DNA from: Mustelus asterias
Lineage: Eukaryota
Length of the DNA: 64,000 nucleotides
Direction of reading: 5' to 3'
NCBI RefSeq assembly: GCF_964213995.1
Contig: NC_135830.1
Coordinates: 6,448,001 to 6,512,000 of the forward strand
Shown: positions 60,482 to 64,000 of the stretch, one piece after another
Position numbering within the stretch: the stretch's first letter is position 1
How the letters are laid out: every line of letters begins with the position of its first letter
Made by a program: the position numbers and the translations under genes
The notes under the pieces: generated by a model
What the model saw: only the letters and a program-made list of their open reading frames with translations
The model's database searches: none
Told to the model about the DNA's origin: nothing

Positions 60482-61444
60482 TCATTTGTGAACTCGCTGG
60501 TGTGTCACAAGCTGTGATGACTGAGTGAATCCCTTCCCACACTCAGAGCAGGTGAATGGCCTCTCCCCAGTGTGAACTCGCTGGTGTTTCAGGAGTTGGG
60601 AAGACTGAGAGAATCTTTTCCCACAAACAGAGCAGGTGAATAGCCTCTCCTTAGTATGAACTTGTTGGTGCACCAGACTGTCTGATGACTGAATGAATCC
60701 CTTAGCACACATGGAGCAGGTGAATGGCCTCTCTCCAATGTGAACTCGCTGGTGCAACAGAAGCTGGTATGACTGAGTGAATCCCTTCACACTCTCAGAG
60801 CAGATGAATGGTCTGTTCCCAGTGTGAACCTGCTGGTGTGTCACAAGGTGGGATGTCTGAGTGAATCCCTTCCCACACACACAGCAAATAAATGGCCTCT
60901 CCTCAGTGTGAACTCGCTGGTGTGGTTGAGTGAATCCCTTTTCACACACACAGCAAGTGAATGGCCTCACCCCAATGTGATGTCGCTGGTGAATTAGCAA
61001 GTCAAATGACTGAACAAATCTCTTCCCACTCACACACAAGATGAACAGTTTCTCCCCAGTGTGAAGTCGCTGGTGTATTTGCAGATACTTCTTGCTTTTA
61101 AAGCTCTTCTCACAGTCAGAACATTTAAAAAGTCTCTGATCACTGTGTACATGTTGATGTTCAGTGACCTGGGATGACTGAGTGAATTTGTTGCCACACA
61201 CAGGCCTGGTGAATGCGCTCTCCTCAGTGTGAACTTGCTCATGAGCCAGGAGGTCACATGAGTCAGCAAATTCCTTCCCAAACATGGAGCATCTGAACAG
61301 CCTCTCCTGGGTATGAACTGGCTGGTGTGTCGACAGACTGGATAACTGAGTAAATCCATCTCCACACATGGAGAAGGTGAAAGGTCCCTCCCCAGTGTGA
61401 CTGCATTGATCATGTCCCAGTTCAAAAGGGAAAATTAATCCCAT
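60482..61444 (-). CDS. ZNF gene 11, open 320-aa frame but only ~5 of 12 fingers retain all Zn ligands and spacing (degenerating gene or pseudogene)
   Basis: Cys losses (FSMC, CSMF, TRPVC, CVSG, CSES) and an in-frame deletion (GFTQPHQRVH); ancestral MEKPW start lost. Confidence 0.6.
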   Translation of the reverse strand: MGLIFPFELGHDQCSHTGEGPFTFSMCGDGFTQLSSLSTHQPVHTQERLFRCSMFGKEFADSCDLLAHEQVHTEESAFTRPVCGNKFTQSSQVTEHQHVHSDQRLFKCSDCEKSFKSKKYLQIHQRLHTGEKLFILCVSGKRFVQSFDLLIHQRHHIGVRPFTCCVCEKGFTQPHQRVHTEERPFICCVCGKGFTQTSHLVTHQQVHTGNRPFICSESVKGFTQSYQLLLHQRVHIGERPFTCSMCAKGFIQSSDSLVHQQVHTKERLFTCSVCGKRFSQSSQLLKHQRVHTGERPFTCSECGKGFTQSSQLVTHQRVHK

Positions 61445-62091
61445 CCCACAGTCACCATATGTCCACGCTTTCTCCGCGATTCAATTATTCATTTGTCTCT
61501 CCAGGTTGGATGATCAGTTGGAGCCTCACACAGAACACCTGTACATTTCTCCACACTGAATGGTATGATGTTTTTTCAGGCTGTTTAATGGTTAAAGTTC
61601 TTTCCACAGTCAGTTCACTGGAACACTCTCACTCGGGTGTATGTGTGTCTCGGTGCTTTTCCAGTTACACTGATGTTTAAAATCTTTCCCCACAGACAGA
61701 ACAGACAAACATTTCTCCTTCCACATTCAGAGGTTGATGATATTCAGGTCCTGATGAATCAAGTGACTGTCAGATTTTGATATGATGTTTGTTCTGACTT
61801 TCCCATCTGGAAATTCTCTCCCTCGAACTCCCTGCAAAAGGAGTTTACAGAAGTTATCAGTGTAAGTACAGGACATAAATTCAGAGCAAACAATTCTGTG
61901 CCCCACACACACTTCTCCCTCTCTGCTCATTGCTCGATTCAGTTTCTAGTCTTCTCTCTTGGTTCTCTCCCCTCCTGTCCTCAAACTGGTGACACTGGCT
62001 GTGGATCAATCCCACTCCGTCACTCTCATTCTCACAAATAATGCAGCTCACAACAACAATTTAACGAAGGGTCATCTGGACTCGAAACGTT

Positions 62092-62172
62092 CTAAATGTT
62101 AGCGACGCCAAGATCACAGACACCGCCACCTATTTCTGTGCAGTGAAGATCAATATCGGTCGTACAAAAACC
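62092..62172 (+). pseudogene. 3' remnant of an antigen-receptor V segment with damaged RSS
   Basis: LNVSDAKITDTATYFCAV (FR3 D-x-A-x-Y-F-C), CAGTG at 62141-62145, perfect nonamer ACAAAAACC at 62164-62172. Confidence 0.6.
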
Positions 62173-62824
62173 GGCAGAAGAACAGTCCTGGCATGTTTGT
62201 AGCCTGTGCTTCATCAGAGAACTGGGCATTTATATAAAGCTGTCCCTGGAAAACTTTCTCCAGTCTCCCAGTAAGTGAAATATATTCCTGATCTGCGTTC
62301 CTTATTTAACTTCAGACGAGAAGGAACAACATACTGTTAGATGTGAGTTATTGCCTGTCCGAATCTACACCAGGCACAGTTGCTGTCCAAGGACCTTTCT
62401 GATGTCCTGGTTGTGCTGTTCGGTGATTTGCTTTCTAAAGGACCATTTTTCACTTCATTGGTTAAATTCAATCCCAGACTTTTATACATTTTGTTTTTGA
62501 TATAGAACCCAGTGACACAGACTCACTGCCTTGGGATCCTTTTCAGTTAACTGGCAGGATGAACAGCCCATAATGAGCGGCATTACTGCACGCCTGTCGG
62601 TATTCTCCACCTCGGCCGGCACACTATGTTCCAAGTTATTTACTGAGCTGATATCACTTGGGGTACAGTTATGAATTCTGATTTCCCAGACAGGCTCCCC
62701 ATTGATTTCAACAAGGGCAGGGACAGCAATCCAAACGTTTGATATAAAAACCTGACTCTGTAAAGCTAGAAAGAAACTAATGTCTCAGGTAAAGGCCCCA
62801 AAAACATTTGACCGAATGCGCTGA

Positions 62825-63122
62825 GGTTTATGTGCTTTTCCTGACGCTGTGCCTCACAGCATAGTAATCGGCCGTTCCATCCTCCGCGCTCATGCCGCCT
62901 ATACTGAGGAACCAGACTCGTCAACAGCCATCACAAATGTTGCTGAGATTTTCCCTTTCCCAGTGCTAATTTTTTTTAGTGCTAATTACCCATCCTGGGT
63001 GCTCTGCCTATTTCTGCTGATGCAATTGCATAGTTGATCTGATTATTCACAATCTAACTGCGCTAAACCTTCTTCTTGCACAGTTAACGGCACCAGAGAC
63101 TGAGTTACTGCACATATTCCGC
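62825..63122 (-). pseudogene. TCR alpha/delta-like V pseudogene exon with RSS
   Basis: Acceptor TTTTACAG|; GICAVTQSLVPLTVQEEGLAQLDCE* (FR1); QQK..RAP..WVIS (FR2, frameshifted); LSIGGMSAEDGTADYY-AVR (FR3, Cys codon missing); CACAGCG-11 nt-ACATAAACC. Confidence 0.7.
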
Positions 63123-63223
63123 CTGTAAAAGTAGATAAATAAGAGTCCAAGGTTAAAGAGGAACGATATATCTGTATGTGTGCGTAAGTTTCCATTTTAC
63201 AACCTGTCCATATATAAATACAT

Positions 63224-63553
63224 GGGCGGCACGGTAGCACAGTGGTTAGCACTGCTGCTTCACAGCTCCAGGGACCTGGGTTCGATTCCCGGCTCGGGTC
63301 ATTGTCTGTGTGGAGTTTGCACATTCTCCTCGTGTCTGCGTGGGTTTCCTCCGGGTGCTCCGGTTTCCTCCCACTGTCCAAAGATGTGCGGGTTAGGTTG
63401 ATTGGCCATGCTAAAATTGCCCCTTAGTGTTCTGAGATGTGTAGATTAGCGGGTAAATATGTAGGGATATGGGGGTAGGGCCTGGGTGGGATTGTGATCG
63501 GTGCAGACTCGATGGGCCGAATGGCCTCTTTCTGTTCTGTATGATTTCTATGA
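63224..63553 (+). mobile_element. HE1-type V-SINE, young, in the presumed V leader intron
   Basis: Complete head, core and tail. Confidence 0.92.
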
Positions 63554-63849
63554 TATATATATTATATACATATATACCGTGAACTATATTAAATCAGATT
63601 ACAATCTATTGTCGTCAATCTGCTAAACTGTGTTAATGAACATAATTCTTCACTTACTGTCACATAGCGCCGCCAGTCTGTCTGACTGAGTATCTCAGTG
63701 AATGGGAATGGGATGATTGAGACACAATGCAGGGACCAGCCCCATTGTGACCTCACTCAGGAACACATCCCTTTTGGCTTCGGCGTTGGACCCACGTGAC
63801 CTTCTAATGAGCATGCAGGGATTCGGTGCCCTCTGCTGGCAGATTCTGT

Positions 63850-64000
63850 TCACAGTAAGAAATCTCACAACACCAGGTTAAAGTCCAATGGGTTTATTTG
63901 GTAGCAAACACCATAAGCTTTCGGAGCGCTGCTCCTTCGTCAGATGGAGTGGAAATGTGCTCTCAAACAGTGCACAGAGACACAAAATCAAGTTACAGAA
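63850..64000 (-). mobile_element. Penelope-like 3' end with hammerhead motif (63911-63947); continues beyond the window
   Basis: Reverse complement matches 37682-37835; CCAU-CUGACGA-A-GGAGCAGCGCUCC-GAAA-GC-UU-AUGG. Confidence 0.82.

Follow-up and report, generated by a model that had tools for sequence, protein, structure and literature searches.

Introduction

The closest described arrangement is the shark antigen receptor complex (AgRC) of Flajnik et al. 2025 (PMC12227049), whose main text places IgH clusters, NAR-TCR and TCR alpha/delta V segments on one chromosome, with V exons of either orientation interspersed among the IgH clusters across many Mb and V pseudogenes listed among them. 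Table S1 of that paper puts the white shark alpha/delta Vs at 8.2-17.1 Mb, a stretch of ~9 Mb between IgM clusters. TCR alpha/delta is treated there as a translocon, the table gives no species more than one delta C, and a single translocon is likewise the layout stated in reviews (PMC6795676, in the passages used here). The mouse Tcra/Tcrd locus, as presented in the sections of PMC5859386 that we drew on, covers 1.8 Mb, has one J-C end and carries many CTCF sites upstream of its V promoters. Nurse shark TRAV and TRDV genes, in the corresponding parts of Ott et al. 2018 (PMC5931798), have a split leader, a YYCAV/M end and a 23-RSS.

Here we describe a decayed V gene near one end of a 64-kb window (G000:C71:6,448,001-6,512,000) of C71, a 20-Mb contig, and the antigen-receptor region in which it lies. 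Mammalian Ig and TCR V pseudogenes with a defective RSS show short deletions, SINE insertion and copying within segmental duplications. The window V is like these in its mode of decay; the landing of its spacer near the length of the other RSS class is its own. Its intact relatives share the split leader, YYCAV/M end and 23-RSS of the nurse shark genes (PMC5931798), whereas in the window V the leader, frame, Trp41 and Cys104 are broken and the spacer is 11 nt long.

The layout of C71 matches the AgRC in the IgH, TCR alpha/delta and NAR-TCR parts compared: IgH is linked to both TCR alpha/delta and NAR-TCR, and V exons of both orientations are dispersed among IgH clusters across many Mb. A first-pass annotation of the window had named synteny with shark TCR alpha/delta as a check, and the linkage agrees. 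In contrast to the one delta C per species of the AgRC paper, the assembly holds 19 delta-type and two alpha C exons, and in contrast to the mouse locus, Vs extend from 6.5 to 19.4 Mb amid ZNF genes and IgM clusters. The word "zinc" does not occur in the main text of PMC12227049, and PMC10620051 and PMC11406177 contain no passage on zinc-finger or TCR genes. Among the literature titles listed (most subscription papers and the Sci Adv supplement being outside this survey), none described shark TCR Vs interleaved with ZNF genes or a large number of delta Cs.

A decayed TCR alpha/delta V gene

The gene and its upstream flank comprise the following features (window coordinates):

62852..63122, minus strand: V exon of a decayed TCR alpha/delta gene, from alignment with relatives and the tree
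63124-63123, minus strand: acceptor AG of the V exon, read from the window sequence
63224..63554 (about), plus strand: SINE in the leader intron, from the alignment break against L011 and L012 and matches at other loci
63652..63690, minus strand: leader exon remnant with a phase-1 donor at 63657, from alignment with the intact L011 leader
63748..63757, minus strand: CRE-like promoter motif, core TGAGGTCA, present upstream of 30 of 44 relatives
63826..63839, minus strand: candidate CTCF-type motif, ~82 nt upstream of the CRE, with at most one mismatch to consensus
63851..64000, strand not assigned: left arm of a fold-back insertion, by a self-match of 87% and a match of its central piece at 93%

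An nhmmer profile built from 44 relatives (40 picked from a 150-row list and four from earlier loci) found the V exon at E 5.8e-51 in the 64-kb window and gave no second match there. Compared directly with an intact V of the same genome, the exon is 72% identical over 290 nt (E 1e-38). None of the four in-frame fragments of the broken exon, which are too short, matches Pfam V-set on its own; three intact relatives match V-set PF07686 above cut-off (E 2.5e-14, 4.7e-16 and 3.6e-15). A protein tree with 33 V rows (every intact-looking V of the studied loci, after thinning, plus three database rows) places the broken V as sister to the intact V of locus L011 with support of 99/96, though the broken V was entered with X at its breaks and framed on L011, which can favor that pairing. 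DNA identity ranking agrees with the pairing. Together the two are nested in a family of 23-RSS Vs (100/99), apart from the IgH rows and from TRB, TRG and Ig-kappa, each of the last three represented by one row. The branch leading to the broken V measures 0.62 vs. 0.063 for its intact sister.

Two further observations tie the family to TCR alpha. At C546:32106 an intact member carries a perfect 23-RSS; a TRA J cluster follows ~106 kb downstream of it, beyond intervening ZNF genes. A named gene model, P0008 (a model rather than a sequenced V-J transcript), joins the leader and FR1 of the broken V's family to a TCR alpha constant region. Because of the tree family, the C546:32106 V and the P0008 model, we read window positions 63122-62852 on the minus strand as a non-functional TRAV/TRDV-type pseudogene on sequence grounds. 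Relative L015 is 68-73% identical to catshark proteins (models P0001 and P0003). PDB searches gave antibody chains and did not type V or C, and an Rfam search gave no match.

The gene keeps a split leader with a phase-1 intron and a CRE-type promoter, but of the features that a functional TCR V gene combines (start codon, open frame, Cys23, Trp41 and Cys104) it lacks the start codon, the frame, Trp41 and Cys104. The leader ATG has gone through a 12-nt deletion relative to the L011 leader, and the 5' UTR is short by ~48 nt in alignment with relatives. The V exon carries the substitutions Trp41>Leu and Cys104>Tyr and two stops, and it has lost 10, 1 and 10 nt and gained 5 nt by indels. The leader-intron SINE, which may be of HE1/V-SINE type, is missing from both L011 and L012. 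At sites where L011 and L012 agree, the broken V differs at 52 of 234 exon positions (22%) and 90 of 519 intergenic positions (17%), so the exon shows no coding constraint.

The first-pass annotation had proposed a TCR-alpha/delta-like V pseudogene at this place, and both the profile and the tree bear it out. The minus-strand parts that it listed (CRE, donor, SINE-bearing intron, acceptor, exon, and heptamer and nonamer 11 nt apart) are likewise where it put them. Its description of the second Cys as lost needs correcting: the Cys104 codon has mutated from TGT to TAT in a gap-free stretch of alignment, and the Tyr two codons earlier has become Asp. The V-set comparison that it proposed failed on the broken fragments and succeeded on the intact relatives.

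The fold-back insertion at the window end is ~490 bp long and extends beyond it. Its center repeats 54 nt of the broken V exon, already in decayed form (window 63851-64000; L002:2552-3041). The same unit also occurs in L016-L020 beside other Vs, and the window pseudogene is absent from the stretches read there.

The 11-nt spacer is a 23-nt spacer that has lost 12 nt

The V exon is followed by its signal:

62825..62851, minus strand: RSS with an 11-nt spacer, heptamer 62851-62845, nonamer 62833-62825

The heptamer is identical to that of intact relatives and the nonamer matches at 8 of 9 positions, with the CAC start and the nonamer A-run intact. As a pattern by itself the RSS is within chance (one match at two mismatches vs. 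0.11 expected, and a match in 10 of 100 shuffles), and its significance rests on its place at the end of the V homology. The RSS-like matches elsewhere in the window (30645, 42857, 31050 and 23941) have no adjoining V or J homology and were taken as chance.

By descent the signal belongs to the 23-RSS class. All 44 relatives have spacers of 22-25 nt (31 of 23, 11 of 22, one of 24 and one of 25), none near 12, and in the alignment 12 spacer columns are missing from the window V while its nonamer and 3' flank are still in register. The deletion brings the spacer within one base of the other RSS class. It is one of five (10, 10, 12, 11 and 16 nt) between positions 63034 and 62142, a distance of <900 bp; with four other deletions of 10-16 nt so close by and the rate of change in the exon, a 12-nt deletion is typical of the decay of this gene. 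A genome-wide search for the family end followed by a 10-13 nt spacer returned only the same ten copies of the window V. Among the literature titles listed, none described a change from 23- to 12-RSS by deletion.

Contigs from two DNA runs, which may derive from the assembly's own sample, cross both the RSS and a facing V relic and are free of indels at both. In two presumed-RNA runs of other organisms, the match was a 30-nt repeat or nothing. We also considered a 31-letter "between" entry in one run (62088-62941) as a V-V joint and rejected it, since it falls at neither coding end.

A facing V relic and its lost heptamer

A second V relic faces the window V at a distance of 700 bp:

62088..62145, plus strand: 3' part (about 20 codons) of a V that faces the window V and comes from another family, 73% identical in amino acids to the intact L011 minus-strand V
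62146..62172, plus strand: dead 23-RSS of the facing V; a 16-nt deletion took the heptamer, and the nonamer is kept at 62164-62172
60482..61703, minus strand: degenerate C2H2 zinc-finger exon that adjoins the facing relic and is part of the duplicated block

The relic reaches E 0.012 against Pfam V-set, which does not pass the cut-off, and its 5' part has been replaced by sequence resembling a ZNF gene. At L011, L160 and L012 a tail-to-tail V pair with two 23-RSSs is still present. The facing heptamer is deleted in all ten copies of the pair, so no facing 12/23 pair exists, and no copy has only one of the two deletions: the spacer and facing-heptamer deletions always occur together. Since the first three heptamer bases are required for cutting (PMC10536018, in the part consulted), the facing pair is dead. 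The first-pass annotation had suggested that an 11/12-type spacer facing another RSS could be a cryptic RAG substrate; a facing RSS does exist, but it lacks its heptamer, and the spacer is that of a 23-RSS less 12 nt.

The ZNF-gene-like sequence at window 61300-62088 abuts the facing relic directly. The zinc-finger exon has degenerate fingers, and its own 5' end may have been lost at the junction with the relic.

Ten copies and a palindromic V island

The broken V occurs in ten near-identical copies that differ by 0.15-1.5%, a count in which some may be unpurged haplotypes or haplotigs. All lesions are common to the ten, so decay came first and copying later. The window V lies outermost in a V island at C71:6507318-6577808 with ZNF genes on both sides. 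This island is a 70-kb palindrome whose inverted arms are 98.5-99.5% identical around an 8-kb unique center. It contains 23 V-like units, nine of them open, with spacers of 21-24 nt except in two 11-nt copies; no J or C segments were found at C71 6.503-6.583 Mb. The copies on C353 and C210 represent the same island as the window V, and those on C105 and C131 border a different one. The copies on C306, C89, C726 and C157 are surrounded by ZNF genes, and the 10-70 kb read there contain no further V.

Explanations for the broken V and its short spacer

The window V is very probably a non-functional TCR alpha/delta V whose 11-nt spacer arose by a 12-nt deletion from the family 23-RSS, most likely as a neutral accident of decay. 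It descends from a tail-to-tail pair of the kind still seen at L011, L160 and L012, with a 23-RSS on each member. In this lineage both partners decayed, the one through loss of its ATG, frame, Trp41, Cys104 and 12 spacer bases, the other through loss of its 5' part and heptamer. The block was presumably copied passively in segmental duplications together with neighboring ZNF genes, and one such event may have produced the mirror arm of the 70-kb palindrome. The window V is thus an ordinary pseudogene, probably amplified as a passenger. Because J segments and the 5' side of D carry 12-RSSs and its own spacer is now 11 nt, it would be unable to join either. The nine open Vs of the island, judging from the layout and the gene model, are probably ordinary TRAV/TRDV genes that join a J-C or D-J-C elsewhere on the chromosome.

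It is unlikely that the deletion instead created a working 12-class RSS, one that RAG would pair at low rate with the 23-RSS of a neighboring V or with the 3' 23-RSS of D-delta to yield non-productive V-V or D-V joints, inversions or deletions. An 11-nt RSS could in principle pair with a 23-RSS: its length lies inside the range tolerated for the 12-class, 12 (+/-1) nt (PMC2896083, in part), though joining with an 11-bp spacer is reported at 7.7% in a plasmid experiment (Akamatsu 1994, as cited in the part of PMC7753069 used here). The CAC start and near-consensus nonamer are those of a 12-class signal, and the heptamer/nonamer score is within the range of real J signals and above that of 8 of 34 TRAJ signals. 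Good 23/24-RSSs lie 4.5-70 kb away in both orientations, and the CRE and CTCF-type motifs of the promoter are both intact. The heptamer and nonamer also keep 15 of 16 family bases, with a probability of ~0.05 at the exon's rate of decay, a figure biased by the RSS having been singled out for looking intact. Against this, the sole facing partner has no heptamer in any of the ten copies, an intact facing 23-RSS thus being absent; the first spacer bases differ from the preferred AT motif (PMC10536018, same part); and RAG would load at a D/J cluster, of which the nearest lies 0.6 Mb off. No V-V or D-V joint was seen in the contigs of the two DNA runs, a weak observation since their tissue is unknown and contigs drop rare forms. 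Use of the window RSS by RAG is possible but unsupported; use of the 11-nt signal in vivo would be improbable, and any product would be non-productive. Should cutting occur, the signal would offer a natural example of a change of RSS class.

A more elaborate version appears very unlikely: one deletion would have turned the 23-class signal into a working 12-class one and so created a 12/23 pair with the facing V, selection to disarm this pair would then have removed the facing heptamer, and the ten copies would serve as RAG decoys through which V-to-V or D-to-V joins remodel V islands in shark thymocytes.

Another reading, which we regard as highly improbable, is a dead gene whose CTCF site in the promoter persists because it forms a boundary or loop anchor where ZNF genes meet V islands, which would favor block copying. 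The motif was scored against a 14-nt consensus; it is perfect, has no rival with at most one mismatch in the 64-kb window, occurs at both palindrome ends and is unchanged in all copies with a read-out (8 of 10). Its position recalls the CTCF sites upstream of V promoters in mouse Tcra/Tcrd (PMC5859386, same sections). However, 17 of the 44 relatives have a like motif at a fixed place, 40-130 nt ahead of their CRE, so the window motif is inherited from the family promoter, and CTCF binding is putative. The four copies without another V nearby also speak against an anchor at V islands.

A V with a native 12-RSS, as in the Ig-kappa Vs on C8 of this genome, or a non-rearranging IgSF exon is refuted by the 22-25 nt spacers of the relatives and by the nesting of the window V in a clade of 23-RSS Vs away from the Ig-kappa, TRB, TRG and IgH rows; its split leader, V exon and RSS are also arranged as in rearranging genes, and the chance of either reading is negligible.

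Taken by itself the pseudogene carries little weight beyond marking the edge of a V island. It does show how the receptor region grew, through V pairs that decay and are then copied in blocks with ZNF genes.

The antigen-receptor region on the contig

Perfect 23-RSSs are spread over 6.5-19.4 Mb of C71, and C1 exons over 1.6-13.5 Mb. An IgM minicluster (VH-D-D-JH-C) at 7.061-7.073 Mb is followed by a NAR-type V-D-J and supporting V (to 7.09 Mb) and by a delta-type D-5J-C-TM cassette at 7.117-7.142 Mb, the nearest D/J cluster to the window V. A TRA J-C cluster lies 11.9 Mb from it at 18.37-18.42 Mb (18370797-18419720), with about 40 J segments carrying 12-RSSs and an alpha C exon 100% identical to the record "TCR alpha chain-like" of Mustelus asterias. 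J and C segments thus lie in cis to the window V. The scan for V, J and C segments proposed in the first-pass annotation therefore yields an island of V-like units with D-J-C and TRA J-C farther along the contig. Its view that the ZNF cluster borders an antigen-receptor region holds in a stronger form, as ZNF genes interleave with V islands; "orphon" is the wrong word for the window V, because its contig also carries D-J-C and J-C clusters.

The delta-type C exons on C71 are as follows (contig coordinates):

7117162-7141738: delta-type C exon within the D-5J-C-TM cassette
11043438: delta-type C exon
12249043-12270852: stretch with a delta-type C exon

These three and 16 on small contigs make up the 19 of the assembly, all with open frames and in two classes (91-100% and 82-84% identity). 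The label delta is given by layout (NAR-type and supporting V, 12-D-23, J and TM exon) and not by a named match. Five delta cassettes were read, each with a D and five J segments, and the stretch fetched includes the C exon in three. This suggests repeated delta miniclusters and not one locus, although part of the count may be haplotigs. We had considered that TRD might be missing or lie on a different chromosome, and gave this up once the delta-type D-J-C cassette and C exons were found on C71. The two alpha C exons, 84% identical in nucleotides, belong to the clusters C71:18370797-18419720 and C546:120790-240475. ZNF genes directly precede both TRA J-C clusters, with no delta C found in between.

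This layout is the larger by-product of the analysis: some intact Vs are as much as 12 Mb away from the alpha J-C, and there are two diverged alpha C exons and 19 delta-type C exons, at least five of the latter in repeated D-J-C cassettes, the C exons being more surprising than the pseudogene itself. It departs from the single translocon of the reviews (PMC6795676, as above) and prompts one to ask to which J cluster the Vs of a given island are joined.

At least three near-identical open Vs with perfect 23-RSSs lie on the minus strand at C71:19363772-19371168, ~0.95 Mb downstream of the alpha C, and would join by inversion. C546 retains D relics ahead of its Js, and in one of these the 3' spacer is shortened. 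In NAR-type cassettes a 23-RSS is repeated with a 61-bp period behind the supporting V (C71:7091239, C71:12229725 and several small contigs). By layout and motif, C24:52.55-52.83 Mb carries a TRB-like V-D-J, C7:140.65 Mb a TRG-like V and C8:50.17-51.09 Mb an Ig-kappa-like V-J-C cluster; RSSs similar to those of C24 at C22:53.0 Mb may mark a second TRB-like cluster.
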